Notes: a model not told the origin generated them from the letters alone. DNA of 64,000 bases from Candidatus Deferrimicrobiaceae bacterium (GCA_963792415.1 CAWBVY010000001.1:62025-126024); one strand, 5' to 3'; positions 3,575 to 47,695 are shown, numbered from the stretch's first letter. A program made the numbers and translations.

Positions 3575-4453
<879 letters not shown>

Positions 4454-8835: not shown

Positions 8836-8928
8836 CGTTTCACTTTACCACTGCCAAACGCCTGCCGGGACGACGCTTCTCCGAAGGGGGGCTCCCCGCT
8901 CGCATCCGGGACTCCCCCTAGGCTGCGC

Positions 8929-9038
8929 CGCCTCGGAGGGCGGGGCTCCGTTCGTGGCTCGCCGTGCGGTGAACCTGCACGGCTGCGCTTTACCTCACTG
9001 CGCCCCCCTCCTGCGGCGACTCCGCCGGACCCTCCCGT
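8929..9038. repeat. Intergenic structured repeat, module 1, copy A (110 bp).
   Basis: 96% identical over 110 bp to 40893-41002. It contains hairpins CGGAG-GGCGGGG-CTCCG and GCCGTGCG-(A/G)TGAACC-(C/T)GCACGGC. The A/B difference in the second hairpin turns a G-C pair into a G-T pair. Confidence 0.8.
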
Positions 9039-9066
9039 TCCGTACGCCGCACCGTGGAACCCCCCG

Positions 9067-9138
9067 TGTGCCCCCCGTTTATCCTACAGCGGGGGTACCC
9101 CAGGGAGCGCTATTCGTATGGGAGTGGGGTGCGCTCAC
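9067..9138. repeat. Intergenic repeat, module 2, copy A (about 70 bp, contains palindrome GGGGTACCCC).
   Basis: About 85% identical to the reverse complement of 41021-41090. Relative to module 1 the orientation is opposite in the two copies. Confidence 0.75.
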
Positions 9139-9146
9139 CTCTGCGG

Positions 9147-9186
9147 AAAAAAGCCCGGGTTGCGTTCCCGCAACCCGGGCTTATTT
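9147..9186 (-). terminator. Rho-independent terminator of icd; symmetric, so potentially bidirectional.
   Basis: AAAAAA-GCCCGGGTTGCG-ttcc-CGCAACCCGGGC-TTATTT. On the minus strand this is a 12-bp GC stem followed by UUUUUU, 20 nt after the icd stop. Confidence 0.75.
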
Positions 9187-9205: not shown

Positions 9206-11491
<2,286 letters not shown>

Positions 11492-38972: not shown

Positions 38973-40009
38973 GCCTCCCCGCGACCCTCTCTCCTCCACG
39001 GAAGGCGGTCATTCTCCTCTCGGGGGGGCTCGACAGCACCCTGGCGGCCCGCATCGTCCGGGACCAGGGGATCGAGCTTCACGCGATCCATTTCACCTCG
39101 CCGTTCTGCACCTGCTCCCACAAGGGCCCGGGGAACGGGAACGGGTGCCGCTCGGCGGCGCAGGAGGTCGCGGTGGGGATGGGGATCCCGATCCGGACCG
39201 TTTCGAAGGGCGAGGAGTACCTCGAGATCGTCAAGCGCCCCCGGCACGGCCGGGGGTCGGCGATGAACCCGTGCATCGACTGCCGGATCTTCACCCTGCG
39301 GAAGGCGAAGGCGTTCATGGAGGAGATCGGCGCCTCCTTCCTGGTCACCGGGGAGGTCGTCGGGCAGCGGCCGATGTCCCAGCGGGACGACGCGCTGCGC
39401 GGCATCGAGAAGCACAGCGGATGCGCGGGGATCATCCTGCGCCCGCTTTCCGCCCACCACCTCCCCCCCTCGCTGCCGGAGCGGGAAGGCTGGGTGGACC
39501 GGGAGAAACTGCTCGCGATCACGGGGCGCTCCCGCAAGGAGCAGATCCGGCTCGCGGAGGAGTTCGGAATCGGCGACTACCCGTGCCCCGCGGGGGGATG
39601 CATGTTGACCGACCGGACCTTCTCCCTCAAGGTGCGGGATCTCCTCGACCACCACCCTTCCTTCGGGATGCACGAAGTCCTCCTCCTGAAGGCGGGCCGC
39701 CATTTCCGCGTTCGGGGGATCCGGGCGATCGTGGCGAAAAGCGAGGGGGAGAACCGCCGGCTCGAGGCCCTCTGCCGGGGGAGGGACACCGTCTACGTGG
39801 CGCACAGCCACCCGGGCCCGTCCGTGACGCTCCTGGGCGGAAGCGAGGAGGAACGCCTCGATCTGCTCTCCCGGATCTTCACCCGGTACGGCAAGGCTGG
39901 GTCGGTCGGTTCCTACGAAATCCGGGAGATCGCGCCCGGCGGGGAGCGACTCGTGACCGTGCCCGAAAACCCGGACTTCGAGGAGGTCGGGCGTGGACTC
40001 CTCTGCTGA
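38969..40009 (+). CDS. PP-loop ATP pyrophosphatase, ThiI-like adenylation domain, without THUMP or rhodanese domains; it has CxxC and CPxxxC motifs plus an uncharacterized C-terminal domain of about 120 aa.
   Basis: SGGLDS PP-loop. …NPCIDCRIFTLRKAKAFMEEIGASFLVTGEVVGQRPMSQ…ILRPL…DYPC… is colinear with the ThiI PP-loop domain. ATGA overlap with the E1 gene stop. Confidence 0.65.
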   Translation: MSLPATLSPPRKAVILLSGGLDSTLAARIVRDQGIELHAIHFTSPFCTCSHKGPGNGNGCRSAAQEVAVGMGIPIRTVSKGEEYLEIVKRPRHGRGSAMNPCIDCRIFTLRKAKAFMEEIGASFLVTGEVVGQRPMSQRDDALRGIEKHSGCAGIILRPLSAHHLPPSLPEREGWVDREKLLAITGRSRKEQIRLAEEFGIGDYPCPAGGCMLTDRTFSLKVRDLLDHHPSFGMHEVLLLKAGRHFRVRGIRAIVAKSEGENRRLEALCRGRDTVYVAHSHPGPSVTLLGGSEEERLDLLSRIFTRYGKAGSVGSYEIREIAPGGERLVTVPENPDFEEVGRGLLC

Positions 40010-40880
40010 CAAACGGAACGGCGCCCCGACGCCGGACGACCTTCGCCGCTACGAGGCGTTGCTCGAGGAGCTCCGCCGGATGGGGTCGGCCGTCGTCGCC
40101 TTCAGCGGCGGGGTGGACAGTTCGTTCCTGCTGCACGCAGCGAAGGCGGCGATGGGAGACCGGGTCCTGGCCGTCACCGCGACGTCGCCGACGTACCCCC
40201 GCTCCGAGCGGGAGGAGGCTTCGCGGCTCGCCCGCTCGTGGGGCGTGGCGCACCGTCTCGTCGAGTCGAACGAGCTGGAGATCCCCGGCTTCTCCGCGAA
40301 CCCTCCGGACCGGTGCTACCACTGCAAAAAGGAGCTGTTCGGGATCCTCGCCGGGATCGCCCGCGAAGAGGGGTACGCGGCCGTGTGCGACGGATCGAAC
40401 GCCGACGACCGGCACGACTTCCGGCCGGGGCGCCGCGCCGCGAAGGAGCTCGCCGTCCGCAGCCCGCTGCTCGAGAACGGACTGGGCAAGCCGGCGATCC
40501 GCCGCCTGAGCCGGAGCTTCGGTCTCCCCACGGCGGACCGCGGTTCGTTCGCGTGCCTCTCCTCGCGCTTCCCGTACGGAACGACGATCGACGAGGAGTC
40601 GCTGCGACGCGTGGAGGCGTGCGAGGAGGTGCTGCGGGGGTTCGGATTCCGGCAGTTCCGGGTGCGCGTCCACGGCGCGGTGGCGCGCATCGAAGTGGGG
40701 ACGGACGAGATCCCGCGCCTCTTCGAGCCGGAGATCTCCGGGGCGATCCACGATCGGTTCCGGGAGAACGGCTTTCTCTACGTCTCCGTGGACATCCGGG
40801 GGTACCGCACGGGTTCGATGAACGAGGGGCTGCCGGCATCGACCCTGGGACTCGTCGCAGGACCGCCCGAAGATCTGTAG
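39993..40880 (+). CDS. LarE-family PP-loop ATPase (TIGR00268 sulfur insertase), three-Cys [4Fe-4S]-type
   Basis: FSGGVDSS PP-loop. …ACLSSRFPYGTT…FRVRVHGAVARIEVG… matches LarE. The Cys in CYHCK plus ACLSSR indicate the Fe-S-dependent, non-sacrificial class. GTG start with a GAGGAGG RBS. Confidence 0.8.
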   Translation: MDSSADKRNGAPTPDDLRRYEALLEELRRMGSAVVAFSGGVDSSFLLHAAKAAMGDRVLAVTATSPTYPRSEREEASRLARSWGVAHRLVESNELEIPGFSANPPDRCYHCKKELFGILAGIAREEGYAAVCDGSNADDRHDFRPGRRAAKELAVRSPLLENGLGKPAIRRLSRSFGLPTADRGSFACLSSRFPYGTTIDEESLRRVEACEEVLRGFGFRQFRVRVHGAVARIEVGTDEIPRLFEPEISGAIHDRFRENGFLYVSVDIRGYRTGSMNEGLPASTLGLVAGPPEDL

Positions 40881-40892
40881 GTGAGGCTCCAT

Positions 40893-41002
40893 CGCCTCGG
40901 AGGGCGGGGCTCCGTTCGTGGCTCGCCGTGCGATGAACCCGCACGGCTGCGCTTTACCTCACTACGCCCCCCCTCCTGCGGCGACTCCGCCGGACCTCCC
41001 GT
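40893..41002. repeat. Intergenic structured repeat, module 1, copy B (110 bp), immediately after the LarE-like stop.
   Basis: See copy A at 8929-9038. Confidence 0.8.
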
Positions 41003-41020
41003 AACGGGACACTTAGTGCG

Positions 41021-41090
41021 GCGGCGCACCCCACTCACCTACGAAATGCGCTCCCTGGGGTACCCCCGCCGTAGGAAGAACGGGGGGTAC
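41021..41090. repeat. Repeat module 2, copy B, in inverted orientation relative to copy A; overlaps the last about 18 codons of mogA.
   Basis: Reverse complement matches 9067-9138. It contributes the aberrant MogA tail …GGDCTPRSSYGGGTPGSAFRR. Confidence 0.75.
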
Positions 41091-41568
41091 AGTCGCCGCC
41101 TTCGCCGCGGATCTTTTCGATCGCGTGGGGGAGGGCGGGAAGAAGAACCGCCAGGTTCTCCGTGGCGCCGCCGGGGCTCCCCGGCAGGTTGACGATCAGC
41201 GTCTTCCCGCGGATGCCGACCACGGCGCGGGACAGCATCGCCGCGGGTACCCGCTTGAGGCTTTCCGCCCGCATCGCCTCCGCCATCCCGGGTACTTCCC
41301 GGTCCAGGATCTCCCGGGTGGCGTCCGGCGTGACGTCGCGCGGGTCGACCCCCGTTCCCCCGGTAGTCACGACCAGGTCGAGCTCGAGCGCGTCGCAGAA
41401 GTGGAGAAGGGCGCGGCGGATGAAGGAAACCTCGTCGGGGATCACCACCTGCTGCGCGATCTCCGCGGGAAGCGACCGGAGCATCTCCGCCACGGCGGGA
41501 CCGGAAGCGTCGGGACGCTCCTTCCGGAACGACCGGTCGGACATGGTGATCACGGCGGCGCGGAACAC
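41035..41568 (-). CDS. mogA: Molybdopterin adenylyltransferase MogA/MoaB family
   Basis: 177 aa with …AAVITMSDRS… and the TTGGTG motif. GTG start with a GAGGGG RBS. The C-terminal about 18 aa are encoded by the repeat element. Confidence 0.85.
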   Translation of the reverse strand: MFRAAVITMSDRSFRKERPDASGPAVAEMLRSLPAEIAQQVVIPDEVSFIRRALLHFCDALELDLVVTTGGTGVDPRDVTPDATREILDREVPGMAEAMRAESLKRVPAAMLSRAVVGIRGKTLIVNLPGSPGGATENLAVLLPALPHAIEKIRGEGGDCTPRSSYGGGTPGSAFRR

Positions 41569-44151: not shown

Positions 44152-44628
44152 TTAGTGACGCTGCGCCAGCAGCCGTCTTGCCTCCTGCCGCACCACGGCC
44201 GAAAGGCTGCGGTTTTGCGACAGGACCTTCAACTCGCTGGTCTGGTACGACTTCAGGAACCGGATCGCGGCCGGCGGCGGGGTCCTCGGGTTCTGGACCA
44301 GCGCGCTGATTACCAGCCGGTTCGCCGTCCATTGCCGGCCTTCGGCGATGAACCGGAGCACATCCTCGTGGGTCAGGGAGGATGCCGCGTAGGAGATGAT
44401 ATCGTCCTCCGTCACTTTCGGGCTTCCGATCACCGCGCGGGCCACCATGCTGCTCGCGTCCCGCGACAGGATCCGGCGGACCTCCCGGTTCCCCTTGACC
44501 GCGAGCTCCACCTTCTCGGGCACGGAGAGCCGGGCGACCTGCGAGGCGATGGAACTGCGCTCCTCCTCGCCGATCTGCCGCTCCTCCGTCAGGTTCGGTC
44601 CGGCCTGCGCGACTCCGGGACCTTTCAC
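44152..44628 (-). CDS. Hypothetical alpha-helical (HEAT-like repeat?) protein, 158 aa
   Basis: Non-biased sequence (…LSVPEKVELAVKGNREVRRILSRD…EDVLRFIAEGRQW…ISALVQNPRTPPPAAIRFL…) hidden inside an R-rich 737-aa table ORF. GTG start overlapping the EF-G paralog stop (GTGA), preceded by a purine-rich RBS. Confidence 0.5.
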   Translation of the reverse strand: MKGPGVAQAGPNLTEERQIGEEERSSIASQVARLSVPEKVELAVKGNREVRRILSRDASSMVARAVIGSPKVTEDDIISYAASSLTHEDVLRFIAEGRQWTANRLVISALVQNPRTPPPAAIRFLKSYQTSELKVLSQNRSLSAVVRQEARRLLAQRH

Positions 44629-46709
44629 TCCTCCTCCTCTTCCCCCATCTCCTTCTTCGACTCGGCGATCACCTTCTCCGCGATGACGGCCGGGGTCTCC
44701 TCGTAGTGTGACACCTTCATCGTAAATTGTCCGCGCCCCGAGGTGATCGAACGGAGATCGGACGAATAGCGGAGGACCTCCGCCAACGGCACCTGGCACC
44801 GGACGATCTGGCTCTTCCCGAGGGCGTCCACCCCAAGGACCCGTCCGCGGCGCCCGTTGAGATCCCCGATGATGTCCCCGACGTTCTCCTCCGGGATGAC
44901 GACCTCCATCTCCGCGATCGGCTCGAGAAGGACCGGCTTGGCGGCCAGCGCCGCTTTCTTGAAGGCGAGGGACCCGGCGATCTTGAACGCCATCTCGGAG
45001 GAATCGACGTTGTGGAACGAGCCGTCGAAGACGGTGGCCTTCACGTCCACCACCGGGTATCCCGCGATGACCCCCTTGCCCATCCGCTCCACGATCCCCT
45101 TTTCCACCGCCGGGATGTATTGGCGCGGGATCGACCCGCCCACGATCCCGTCCACGTACTCGAACCCCTTCCCGCGCGGCTGCGGCTCGAGGCGGATCCA
45201 GCAGTCGCCGTACTGCCCGCGGCCGCCGGTCTGCTTCTTGTGCTTCCCCTGGGCTTCGGCCTTCCCCTTGAGCGTCTCGAGGTAGGCGATCTTCTGCGTG
45301 CGCAGCTCCACCTCGACGCCGTACACGCGCTTCAGCTTCTCGACGGCCACCTCGACGTGGGTCTCCCCCATCCCCGCGAGGATGAATTCGTTCGTCTGGG
45401 GATCCTTGCGGAAACGGAGGGTCGGGTCCTCCTCGATCATCCGGGAGAGGGAGCTTCCCAGCTTGTCCTCGTCGTTGCGCGTCTTCGGACGGACGGCGAA
45501 GGAGATGACCGCCTCCAGGGGGGACGGCCGCTCGAAGACGATCGGGGCCTTCGGATCGCACAGGGTGTCTCCCGTGGAAGTCTCCTTGAATTTCGCCACC
45601 GCGACGATCTCCCCCGCGGAGGCCGACCCGAGCCCCTTCTGCTTCTTCCCCTCCAGCCGCAGAATCTGCCCGATCCGCTCCACCGCGTCCTTGCTCGAAT
45701 TCAGCGGGGACATGTCCGGCGTGAGCGTGCCGGAGAAGATCTTGAAGATGGAGAGCTTCCCCGCGTACGCGTCCGCCAGCGTCTTGAAGACCTGGCCGGA
45801 GAACGGCGCGTTCACGGAGATGGGCCGGTTCTCGGCGGCCTTCTTCTTCGGGTTGGTCCCCTCGACCTCTCCCCGGTACGAGGGATCCGGAAGGGCGAAG
45901 TTGACGAGGTCGAGCACCGGCTGGATCGCGATGTTGCGCAACGCGGAGCCGTAAAGGACCGGGAGGAACCGCATCGCCCGCACCCCCGCGCGGAAACCGG
46001 CCCGGATCTCCTCGTCCGTGAGGGCGGTCCCCTCGAGGAACTTCTCGATCAGCGCGTCGTCGGACTCGGCGCACGATTCGACGAGCTTCTCCCGGGCGCT
46101 CGAGGCATCGGCGGCCAGGTCGGCGGGGATCTCCTGGAGGGTGAACTCGCCGGTGTCGCCCTTGTACACCATCGCCTTCATCCGGAACAGGTCGACCACG
46201 CCGCGGAACCCGGCCTCCTTCCCGAGCGGCAGCTGCACGGGCACCGCGGGCACCTTCAGGATGTCGGCGATCTCCTCGACCGCCTTCGCGGGGTCGGCGC
46301 GCTCCCGGTCCATCCTCGAAATGAAGGCGATCACCGGGACGTCCGCCGCCCGCGCCAGGTTCCACATCTTCTCGGTCTGGACCTCCACGCCGGAGACGGC
46401 GTTCACGACGAGGATCGCGCCGTCCAGCACCTTGAGGCAGGACCGGGTGTCCGCCTCGAAGTTGATGTAGCCGGGGGTGTCGGCGAGGGTGACCTCGACC
46501 TTGTCCCAGGCGTAGTGATGGAAGGAGGTGCTGATCGTGATCTTCCGCCGGATCTCCTCCGGGTCGTAGTCGAAGTTGGAGCTCCCGTCGTCCACCTTGC
46601 CCATCCTGTCCGTCGCCTTCGCGTTGAACAGAAGGGCCTCCGCCAGCGTCGTCTTTCCCGCTCCTCCGTGCGCGATGATGCCGACGTTCCGGATCTGCTG
46701 GATATCCAC
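44625..46709 (-). CDS. Elongation factor G family translational GTPase (EF-G paralog)
   Basis: 694 aa with G1 AHGGAGKTT, DTPG, NKMD and EF-G domains II-V. Divergent from canonical fusA (AHGGAGKTT rather than AHIDAGKTT). GTG start with a TAGGAGG RBS. Confidence 0.85.
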   Translation of the reverse strand: MDIQQIRNVGIIAHGGAGKTTLAEALLFNAKATDRMGKVDDGSSNFDYDPEEIRRKITISTSFHHYAWDKVEVTLADTPGYINFEADTRSCLKVLDGAILVVNAVSGVEVQTEKMWNLARAADVPVIAFISRMDRERADPAKAVEEIADILKVPAVPVQLPLGKEAGFRGVVDLFRMKAMVYKGDTGEFTLQEIPADLAADASSAREKLVESCAESDDALIEKFLEGTALTDEEIRAGFRAGVRAMRFLPVLYGSALRNIAIQPVLDLVNFALPDPSYRGEVEGTNPKKKAAENRPISVNAPFSGQVFKTLADAYAGKLSIFKIFSGTLTPDMSPLNSSKDAVERIGQILRLEGKKQKGLGSASAGEIVAVAKFKETSTGDTLCDPKAPIVFERPSPLEAVISFAVRPKTRNDEDKLGSSLSRMIEEDPTLRFRKDPQTNEFILAGMGETHVEVAVEKLKRVYGVEVELRTQKIAYLETLKGKAEAQGKHKKQTGGRGQYGDCWIRLEPQPRGKGFEYVDGIVGGSIPRQYIPAVEKGIVERMGKGVIAGYPVVDVKATVFDGSFHNVDSSEMAFKIAGSLAFKKAALAAKPVLLEPIAEMEVVIPEENVGDIIGDLNGRRGRVLGVDALGKSQIVRCQVPLAEVLRYSSDLRSITSGRGQFTMKVSHYEETPAVIAEKVIAESKKEMGEEEEE

Positions 46710-46749
46710 TCTGACCGTCCTCCTAAAGGGCGTATGTTCCGCGGACTAA

Positions 46750-46913
46750 GTGTTGCGTTTCATAAATTCGGTTGCATTCGAGGCCCGCTGCATCCGCCCC
46801 GGCTTCGTTGCGCTCCCTCACCGTACTTGCCCAGTACGCCTCGGTCGCGACGCCTTGCCGGATGCGGCGCATCGACCCTCTCGGTGCGACACCGTATTTA
46901 TGAAACGCAACAC
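46750..46913. repeat. 164-bp imperfect palindromic element with 22-bp terminal inverted repeats (21/22 matching; 17 outermost bp perfect).
   Basis: GTGTTGCGTTTCATAAATTCGG … CCGTATTTATGAAACGCAACAC. The interior is partly self-complementary (GCATCCG/CGGATGC and others). It lies between the coaX 3' end and the EF-G paralog start. Confidence 0.7.
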
Positions 46914-46927
46914 TTCGCTCCCACGGG

Positions 46928-47695
46928 TCAGGAAAGGTTCCTCTCGTATATAATACGCAGCCCCTCGAGAGTCAAATTCTCATCGATTACGTTGATTTTT
47001 TGCGTCTCGGCGGCGATCGTCCGCGCGAGCCCCCCGGTGGCGATCACCAGGGGGTCGAGGCGGACCTCCTTCCGGATCCGGTCGATGATCCCCTCGACCA
47101 TCGCGACGTACCCGTAGAAGAGCCCCGACTGCATCGCCGCCACCGTGTTCTTCCCGATGACCGTGGCGGGCTTGACGATCTCGATCCGGGGAAGCTTCGA
47201 GGCCTGCCGGAAGAGGGCCTCGGCGGAGATGTTCACCCCGGGGGCGATCACGCCGCCCATGTAGTCCCCCGTCGAGGACACGTAGTCGAAGGTGGTGGCG
47301 GTTCCGAAGTCGACGACGATGGCGGGCCGATGATGCTTCGCGAAGGCCGCCACGGAGTTGACGATCCGGTCCGCCCCGACCTCCTTGGGGTTGTCCATCT
47401 TGATCGAGATCCCCGTCTTGATCCCGGGGCCCACGATCATCGGCGTCAGGCCGAAGTACCGCTCGCACAGCTCGATGATGGTGGGGGTGAGCGGCGGGAC
47501 CACGGAGGCGATGATGATCGCCTTGATCTCCCGGGACGAGAAATCGCTCGCGTCGTAGAGGTTCCGCAGAAGGATCCCGTACTCGTCGCTCGTCTTCTCC
47601 CGGTCGGTCCACACCCGCCAGTGGTGGAGAAGGGCATCCCCCTCGTAGACCCCGAGGACGGTGTTCGTGTTCCCAACGTCGATCACAAGGAGCAT
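46928..47695 (-). CDS. coaX: Type III pantothenate kinase
   Basis: 255 aa starting [12 protein letters not shown]…, with the canonical CoaX/Bvg-accessory fold motifs. Confidence 0.9.

Follow-up and report, generated by a model that had tools for sequence, protein, structure and literature searches.

A 61-nt interspersed repeat at the 3' end of mogA in Candidatus Deferrimicrobiaceae: repeat-encoded protein tails and stop codons inside the repeat

How a protein-coding gene comes to end inside a dispersed repeat is the question raised by mogA, a molybdenum cofactor gene of the MogA/MoaB family located in a stretch of 64,000 nucleotides (nt) from Candidatus Deferrimicrobiaceae bacterium (GCA_963792415.1 CAWBVY010000001.1:62025-126024), which as a whole is referred to here as the window. 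Two sequence modules, designated M1 and M2, are found jointly in two regions of the window, as copy A next to icd and as copy B between mogA and the convergent gene larE. An earlier note on this DNA had described copy B as a single repeat element which inserted into the 3' end of mogA and whose module 2 encodes about the last 18 codons of the gene. This interpretation is right in essence, but wrong on the parsing of the element, on the native end of MogA and on the recency that it implied. Taken as a whole, we consider it probable that M2 is a repeat family in its own right, that one M2 copy inserted into mogA, that stop codons arose within this copy later on, and that M1 reached the locus separately as part of a miniature inverted-repeat transposable element (MITE).

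M2 starts within the Cys160 codon of mogA, at its third base (GACTG^; here and below, the caret marks the insertion point of M2), and the repeat provides the gene with this base, 17 sense codons and the stop codon TGA, in agreement with the estimate of about 18 codons. By translation of the open reading frame (ORF), the C-terminus reads ...IRGEGGDCTPRSSYGGGTPGSAFRR before the stop (longer stretch, ...LPALPHAIEKIRGEGGDCTPRSSYGGGTPGSAFRR). The inverted orientation of M2 relative to the other copy was confirmed by alignment of 9067-9134 with 41024-41091 (inverted repeat, 68 nt, 88% identity), and a search for the 22-nt core of this block with up to 3 mismatches allowed gave two occurrences in the window, compared with 0.00 expected from shuffles. 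M1 forms a direct repeat (8920-9008 and 40884-40972, 93% identity over the 89-nt core), which is extended by gapped alignment to the boundaries given in Table 1. Copy A is placed just past the icd terminator, as had been stated, between this terminator and the start codon of rlmN (8835). The MogA protein matches the molybdenum cofactor synthesis domain model TIGR00177 with 120 bits (cut-off 85.35), and because the NCBIfam models span residues 3-157 at most, the tail lies outside the domain. The closest 120 homologues are MogA/MoaB proteins of Ca. Deferrimicrobium and Deferrimicrobiaceae, and PF00994 is present in all 120 of those listed. 'MogA/MoaB family' is the safe name, since the equivalog models for MogA proper (NF006932) and for MoaB remain below their cut-offs on the protein of the window.

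M2 is a 61-nt non-coding interspersed unit with the consensus TGCCCCCCGTTCTTCCTACWGCGGGGGTACCCCAGGGAGCGCATTTCGTACGGGAGTGGGG. In a scan with one genome per species, its 21-base core was matched in 95 DNA stretches from 18 assemblies, and an nhmmer profile gave 147 copies, the window holding only the two known ones, so that the multi-copy nature claimed for the element stands; the core is absent from viral contigs. Exactly 61 nt were found in 94 of the 117 full-length copies. The assemblies are of the Deferrimicrobium, Deferrimicrobiaceae or 'Deltaproteobacteria MAG' (metagenome-assembled genome) type, except for a single contig from an Actinomycetota bin (JBLMYI010000068.1, labelled Actinomycetota MAG233; L086 in our numbering of loci). 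This contig carries a typical M2, is orthologous to locus L015 of a Deferrimicrobium-type MAG with 88% flank identity, and is probably mis-binned. Terminal inverted repeats are absent from M2, its ends TGCCCCCC... and ...GAGTGGGG having only CCCC/GGGG in common, and no duplication of more than 1 nt surrounds it in the comparisons of filled and empty sites at M1 site 1, M1 site 2 and mogA. The insertion point is G^CG, by preference CTG^CGC, and is found most often at two fixed positions within M1; among the 117 copies, which are mostly nested in M1 and so non-independent, position +1 is C in 91, position +2 is G in 109 and position -1 is G in 85. Viewed on the complementary strand, every M2 lies 3' of GCG (GCA in tandem arrays), and the end of the element, ...GGGGGGCA, mimics the favoured target ...GGGGGGCG. 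Arrays run head to tail with a period of 61 nt, a-M2-c forms resemble recombination products of two M2 copies, and M2 also occurs in unique contexts, for example 2 nt past a stop codon. Between co-directional genes it is antisense in 28 of 38 cases (binomial p = 0.005, orthology uncorrected).

The insertion itself can be followed by comparing filled and empty alleles of mogA, for which the loci of relatives were fetched via their proteins, while 19 further mogA ends were obtained from a scan of metagenomes targeted at the junction. M2 stands directly 3' of GGCGACTG in the window and in L001, L013, L004, L052, L082 and L102. Among the metagenomic ends, 10 of the 19 carry M2 and the other 9 are empty (GACTG^CGCCCC..., with the tails CAPLR, CAPRG, CAPVS, CAPAP and others, each followed by the stop). 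In L100/L101 (GCA_021831745.1), whose MogA is 90% identical to that of the window, the empty site reads GGC GAC TG^C GCC CCC CTG GTG TAG, and the protein ends with ...GGDCAPLV. The downstream sequence of the filled locus L117 equals that of the empty loci L100 and L110 up to the larE stop (...TGTCCGCT/TACAG; slashes mark junctions), and the difference between them is a simple 61-nt insertion without duplication. The comparison with relatives lacking the element, which the earlier note had proposed, thus gave no equal tail without the repeat, since the empty-site relatives have different, shorter tails.

The empty site GACTG^CGCCCCCC matches the favoured M2 site inside M1: ACTG^CGCCCCCCT is identical over 13 nt to the commonest of these sites (CCTCACTG^CGCCCCCCTCC), and the single other occurrence of CTGCGCCCC in the window is the site in M1 copy A. 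It was this gene end that was hit by M2 because its Asp-Cys-Ala-Pro codons (GAC TGC GCC CCC) mimic the M2 target. Target-site duplications, which the earlier note had proposed to look for, are present in the window neither around the composite (CTGTAGGTG/ ... /GTCGCCGCC) nor around the 61-nt unit (GGCGACTG/ ... /TGCGCCGC). Two candidates from this comparison were rejected. L002/L003, considered as an empty site, is better described as a truncated M2 (first hairpin only), since CCCCCCGCTCTTCCTGAAGCGGGGGT is kept, and the ...RSSNRSGTP tails of P0003 and P0023, considered as a variant of the repeat-encoded tail, are produced in L103/L104 by mogA running over the antisense strand of a truncated larE and have no relation to M2. 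In the latter loci (GCA_037439645.1), the mogA-larE gap is deleted and the convergent genes overlap by about 50 nt, MogA having a 17-residue tail from larE antisense (..ATGAATARSSNRSGTP) and LarE being cut to 283 aa.

Which residues are new depends on where MogA originally ended. G(D/E)C is found near the end in 115 of the 120 closest homologues and CAP in 70, the commonest number of residues after the Cys is 4 (17 follow in only three), and a distant orthologue without M2 ends with GGG GAT TGC GCC TGA (GGDCA). Judged from these sequences, the native end is ...GGDCA(P) plus 0-4 residues, and the canonical end ...IRGE assumed previously is off by 6-10 residues. As M2 begins with TGCCCCCCG, Cys-(Ala/Thr)-Pro is recreated on insertion, and therefore only the residues after it are new; the window has Thr for Ala after Cys160, owing to a G to A change at 41088.

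Translated in the frame of mogA, the M2 consensus reads C-A-P-R-S-S-Y-C/S-G-G-T-P-G-S-A-F-R-T-G-V-G and contains no stop codon. Copies outside mogA conform to this, as a stop in the same frame occurs in 1 of the 89 full-length 61-nt copies, and in 0 of the 89 at the Tyr codon (TAC in 68), whereas among the 18 copies associated with mogA, 16 are interrupted by an in-frame stop within M2 (Fisher test, p = 6e-16, which overstates independence because the loci are related; p = 2e-7 when each of the six kinds of change is counted once). At least six different changes created these stops: TAG at codon 5, directly after CAPR (L013); TAA (L004, L117, L120, and L102 via a 1-nt deletion), TAG (L111, L113, L124, L116) or TGA (L002/L003) at the Tyr codon; GCA to TAA (L112, L122); and GGA to TGA (window, L001, L082). 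In L125, TAA is formed at the junction with another element. Two mogA-associated copies are without an internal stop. L052 stops in the M1 part that follows, and in L118 (metagenome contig ERZ1292640...19775) mogA stays open through two tandem M2 copies and beyond over the 190 nt examined, which is the longest repeat-encoded tail. The variety of the stop-creating changes is the robust point here.

How long the tail is depends on the position at which a stop later arose inside M2; the TGA of the window is one of these later stops, and its 17-residue tail is among the longer survivors. The nearest relative with an equal tail, P0001, represents a cluster of 95 member sequences, and the long-tail form therefore persists in nature. 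One frame-open insertion followed by at least six stop mutations in different lineages suggests that long tails encoded by the repeat are tolerated, though at a disadvantage, and short tails may have been selected for. We regard this repeated independent creation of stops inside an inserted M2 as the most instructive result of the analysis.

Table 1 Positions of the repeat modules and of neighbouring features in the window
Feature	Position	Strand	Remarks
mogA (MogA/MoaB-family molybdenum cofactor gene)	41035-41568	-	177-aa ORF; NCBIfam TIGR00177
larE (ATP-dependent sacrificial sulfur transferase)	39993-40880	+	TIGR00268, 311.8 bits (cut-off 150); convergent with mogA
M2 in the mogA 3' end	41029-41089	- (mogA sense)	nhmmer match; 61-nt dispersed repeat; bounds from 117 full-length copies and their flanks
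M2-encoded MogA codons (17; TPRSSYGGGTPGSAFRR)	41038-41088	-	translation
mogA stop TGA inside M2	41035-41037	-	consensus GGA to TGA; also in L001 and L082
Spacer between M2 and M1	41003-41028	-	contains remnant CTAAGTGTCCCGTT of the terminal inverted repeat of a larger M1-bearing element
M1 copy B	40884-41002	+	truncated ~120-nt core of an inverted-repeat (MITE-type) element; starts 3 nt past the larE stop
M1 copy A	8920-9038	+	weaker family homology across about 8866-9056
M2 copy A	9069-9129	+	GTTTRTCC / ...GGGG/TGCGCT subfamily; 30 nt downstream of M1
Hairpin and T-run after icd	9147-9185	-	icd at 9206-11437 (-)

M1, the other module of copy B, has a different origin. At the orthologous loci L004 (GCA_036523415.1) and L102 (GCA_003598145.1), M2 is found at the identical base of mogA with no M1 and with only 17-19 nt to the larE stop, and L117 and L111 likewise have M2 at this base without M1. 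Copy B is accordingly not one element, as had been supposed, but M2 next to the core of a separate one. A short M1 remnant accompanies M2 in L001, and in L052 M2 is followed by the right-hand part of M1 (CGCCCCCCCTCCTGAGGCGACTCCGCCGGAGC). The 27-nt core of M1 was detected in 44 of 106 loci. The module is laid out as ...GCACGGCTG^CGCTTTACCTCACTG^CGCCCCCCTCCTGCGG..., and M2 may occupy either caret, both (with 75-nt spacing) or neither, the last being the case in the window copies; without M2 it reads GGCTGCGCTTTACCTCACTGCGCCCCCC, and its site 1 is GGCTG^CGCTTTACC. Of the two internal M2 sites of M1 copy B, one has no insert and the other carries a change of CTG to CTA.

M1 is the interior of a larger element with terminal inverted repeats of ~25 nt (..AAGTGYT.C..TTCATAAATACGGYAAC..; motif TTCATAAATACGG), as seen for example in L025:1976-2225. 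The two M1 copies of the window align only to the interior of that element and have lost the terminal inverted repeats, but in L082 an intact one, GAGATAAGTGCCCGTTTCATAAATACGG, stands where the spacer of the window keeps its remnant. These M1-bearing outer elements are 165-250 nt long, intergenic and often abut TA; a TA duplication is not established, as their flanks are inconsistently TA on both sides. The same inverted-repeat family is represented in the window by a 168-nt element on the minus strand (46748-46915) with a different interior and near-perfect terminal inverted repeats of ~25 nt (AAGTGTTGCGTTTCATAAATACGGT ... ACCGAATTTATGAAACGCAACACTT), which is located between the end of one gene (46928-47695) and the start of a gene for a 694-aa protein (44625-46709).

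The gap between mogA and larE is a hot spot for inverted-repeat and M1-bearing elements. In L125 (103-134), an inverted-repeat element inserted at a TA inside the mogA-associated M2 (..TTCCTA/AGTGCTGCGCTTCATAATTACGG..), and the junction creates the TAA stop of mogA mentioned above. The mogA end of L116 (177-208; ..TGTGCCCCCCGTTCTTCCTAG/GCGATGGAGCCTCACC/TACAG) corresponds to a window-like M2 plus M1 with an internal deletion from M2 position ~21 to the last 16 nt of M1, and the window-type arrangement is therefore ancestral to the L116 lineage. In L107 and L123, an M1-bearing element lies directly 3' of the stop of an empty-site mogA. Together, these repeats form a nested system in which M2 is found inside M1, M1 inside the inverted-repeat element, and that element in turn inside M2.

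The repeat family with its boundaries, the filled and empty alleles and the distribution of stop codons can be read directly from the sequences, and the history of the locus is probably as follows. An ancestor would have acquired M2 inside the Cys codon of mogA at ACTG^CGCCCCCCT, the start of the repeat recreating Cys-Ala-Pro and the reading frame continuing into the stop-free M2. Descendant lineages would then have gained stops at different positions of the repeat, that of the window a late TGA which leaves the 17-residue tail TPRSSYGGGTPGSAFRR. Separately, an inverted-repeat MITE carrying M1 would have inserted into the space separating M2 from the larE stop and would subsequently have been stripped of its ends, the apparent 'two-module copy B' being the outcome.

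The M2 insertion in mogA is old and is common to many species-level relatives, contrary to the recency implied before. At third codon positions, mogA of L102 is only 54-61% identical to that of the other M2-carrying lineages, yet the M2 of L102 departs from the consensus at no more than about 4 of 61 positions (~93% identity; by inspection, with the 1-nt deletion allowed for, figures from the ungapped comparison having been left out). For pairs of orthologous sites with a flank identity of 78-91%, the M2 copies are 88-100% identical in most cases. A 5-bp stem with a 15-nt loop (C6-10/G26-30) shows two compensated changes from C-G to T-A, each in one subfamily. The conservation of M2 fits sequence constraint, homogenisation between copies or repeated re-insertion. 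M2 and M1 were also considered as strong hairpins or intrinsic terminators, and this was rejected, since neither of them, folded as DNA and as RNA on both strands, is more stable than shuffled sequences. No Rfam family reached its gathering score in the whole window, and at E <= 10 the two repeat regions gave chance-level matches only, none of them near the gathering score and none on M1 or M2. The scan of the window for tRNA and tmRNA genes returned only an unrelated tRNA-Gly, and no terminator-like or promoter-like sites were detected in 40700-41300.

With respect to movement, M2 would have been mobilised in trans by an enzyme encoded elsewhere. A single-strand HUH/Y1 mechanism (RAYT or IS200/IS605-like) fits best, because M2 lacks inverted repeats, leaves no duplication, uses a short fixed target and is found in head-to-tail arrays; we nevertheless hold it to be possible rather than probable. 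Several observations weigh against the explanation preferred here. The searches for a mobilising gene, which covered 842 kb as 8-kb stretches around M2 copies, revealed no transposase, a negative that is weak given the size of these stretches; within the same 842 kb, tblastn with E. coli RayT gave a best E value of 0.38 and a search for an HUH...Y motif gave 0 matches, and the 703 ORFs from the loci that were clustered after filtering by GC content at third codon positions (GC3) belong to housekeeping families only. The predicted fold of M2 is no more stable than that of shuffled sequences (z = +0.2 to +0.9), in contrast to classical REPs. The patchy occurrence of M2 at mogA, where filled and empty states are intermingled in rough and weakly resolved neighbour-joining trees, needs several gains or several precise losses. 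Many copies occupy orthologous sites in different species, and recent movement is not demonstrated. Finally, nearly the same octamer stands on both sides of M2 in mogA and at site 2 of M1 (TGCCCCCC ... CGCCCCCC), and precise deletion or copying through microhomology could therefore mimic the pattern of filled and empty sites. Of the claim in the earlier note that the element is, or was, mobile by direct evidence, what stands is the dispersed family; present-day mobility is not directly attested by the sequence, and no transposase turned up in the 842 kb.

Copying through microhomology is the main alternative to an HUH/Y1 mechanism. M2 would then have been spread or lost by recombination, gene conversion or template switching, and the mogA copy would derive from a filled M1 via ACTG...CGCCCCCCT. 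The 13 identical nt shared by the mogA end and M1 site 2 are what such copying would use, L052 carries M2 together with the right-hand part of M1 (CGCCCCCCCTCCTGAGGCGACTCCGCCGGAGC) as if both had been copied jointly, and the a-M2-c forms as well as the missing transposase point the same way. However, M2 is also found in unique contexts that have no M1-like left side (at the start codon of a gene that is TruA-like by eye, and 2 nt past a stop codon), M1 site 1 (GGCTG^CGCTTTACC) has only CGC in common with the M2 end, and RecA-type recombination would need microhomologies far longer than these, so that we regard this alternative as quite unlikely.

The proposals that remain concern what the repeat unit is and where it came from. 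If M1 and M2 were a single mobile unit that had inserted fairly recently into mogA and replaced everything after ...IRGE, their joint occurrence at two places in the window would follow directly, and the order M1-then-M2 seen in copy A does recur in L059, L074 and L094. However, M1 and M2 are oriented differently relative to each other in copy A than in copy B; M2 stands without M1 at the identical base of mogA in L004, L102, L117 and L111, GGDC(A)(P) is native, and M1 belongs to a separate inverted-repeat element with two internal M2 sites of its own, one empty and one mutated in copy B. A single unit is thus very improbable. The same low probability is assigned to the converse proposal, that M2 is native to the 3' end of mogA or the region downstream, for instance as a conserved hairpin or regulatory region, and that all other copies were derived from it. 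It would account for a shared sequence that starts in the Cys codon, encodes the native Cys-Ala-Pro and is alike in many relatives, but not for 147 copies in unrelated contexts of 18 assemblies, for close relatives that are empty with an intact CAP and unrelated short tails, for the distant orthologue ending in GGDCA without M2, or for a consensus that lacks the stop which a native gene end would need.

Returning to the interpretation of M2 as an inserted repeat, one could go further and see in it a previously undescribed, very small mobile unit of 61 nt which lacks inverted repeats and target duplication, is aimed at CTG^CGC, nests in other repeats and forms head-to-tail arrays, depends for its movement on an enzyme so far not connected with elements of this sort, and, being near-consensus across species, is probably selected at the DNA or RNA level, for example as a protein-binding site or as an element of untranslated regions (28 of 38 antisense); this extended view we consider unlikely. 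An antisense M2 abuts an ATG at an equivalent place in three species (L007:~2095-2155, L019:~1950-2009, L058:~4355-4415), the gene behind this ATG having the N-terminus MSRRVKLTVAYDG and being TruA-like by eye, and judging by its letters the complementary strand of M2, ..GGAAGAGGGGGGGGCA/ATG, could serve there as ribosome-binding site. Many M2 and M1 matches lie within about 100 nt of contig ends (e.g. L014, L030, L056, L057 and L066; loci L005-L099), and these repeats probably break short-read assemblies of the Deferrimicrobium lineage. For annotation, the length differences between MogA proteins of the Deferrimicrobium group are repeat-derived, and pipelines will report them as 'variant C-termini'. 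An environmentally widespread group of uncultured bacteria thus carries a rich nested repeat system which breaks assemblies and which could serve to mark population structure or to study the means of movement.

M2 can be compared with several known systems. Members of the IS200/IS605 family transpose as single strands by an HUH/Y1 mechanism and insert 3' of a fixed target of 4-5 nt, without duplication and without inverted repeats. M2 resembles elements derived from this family in lacking inverted repeats and duplication and in its position 3' of GCG/GCA on the complementary strand, but its hairpins abut the ends instead of being subterminal at the usual spacing, its left-flank preference is loose in unique contexts, and no Y1 gene is linked to it. 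The Correia elements of Neisseria and IS630-type MITEs have terminal inverted repeats of ~26 bp and a TA target. It is the outer M1-bearing element, and not M2, that corresponds to these, with inverted repeats of ~25 nt, TA abutment, a length of 165-250 nt and an intergenic location, although TA duplication is not established and the M1 copies of the window have lost the inverted repeats; this outer element is MITE-like, whereas M2 is not a MITE because it has neither inverted repeats nor duplication. Rickettsia palindromic elements, reportedly described by Ogata and colleagues in 2000, are said to be inserted in-frame in genes. Like M2 they are small repeats tolerated within protein-coding sequence, but they are internal and translated throughout, whereas M2 sits at the extreme 3' end and was repeatedly cut by new stops.

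The REP/BIME and REPIN-RAYT systems of gamma- and beta-proteobacteria are short, abundant, mostly extragenic and mosaic and cause no duplication; REPs are strong palindromes of 20-40 nt, usually arranged as inverted pairs (REPINs), which flank a single-copy RAYT gene (PMC3116915, PMC3337134, bioRxiv 10.1101/2021.07.10.451892). Abundance, mosaics, lineage conservation, long vertical persistence at orthologous sites and the absence of duplication are shared by M2, which differs in being 61 nt long, weakly structured and arranged head to tail, and in that no RAYT was found in the 842 kb around its copies. The nearest parallel for the gene end itself is offered by QMITE1 and QMITE2 of Coxiella burnetii, short non-autonomous repeats that extend into functional genes from the 3' side, with an overlap ranging from a few to 50 bp; the enhC gene of strain Dugway owes 33 C-terminal residues to an in-frame QMITE2, while in RSA 493 an indel places the stop just before the element (PMC5896051). 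As with M2 in mogA, tails are encoded by the repeat and end at lineage-specific stops. The QMITEs, however, are inverted-repeat elements with stable stems, whereas M2 has no inverted repeats, no duplication and no fold above that of shuffled sequences, and the stops of M2 arose many times and within the repeat. The insertion of a repeat at a gene end is therefore an event of a known kind, and M2 is a new repeat family from an uncultured lineage.

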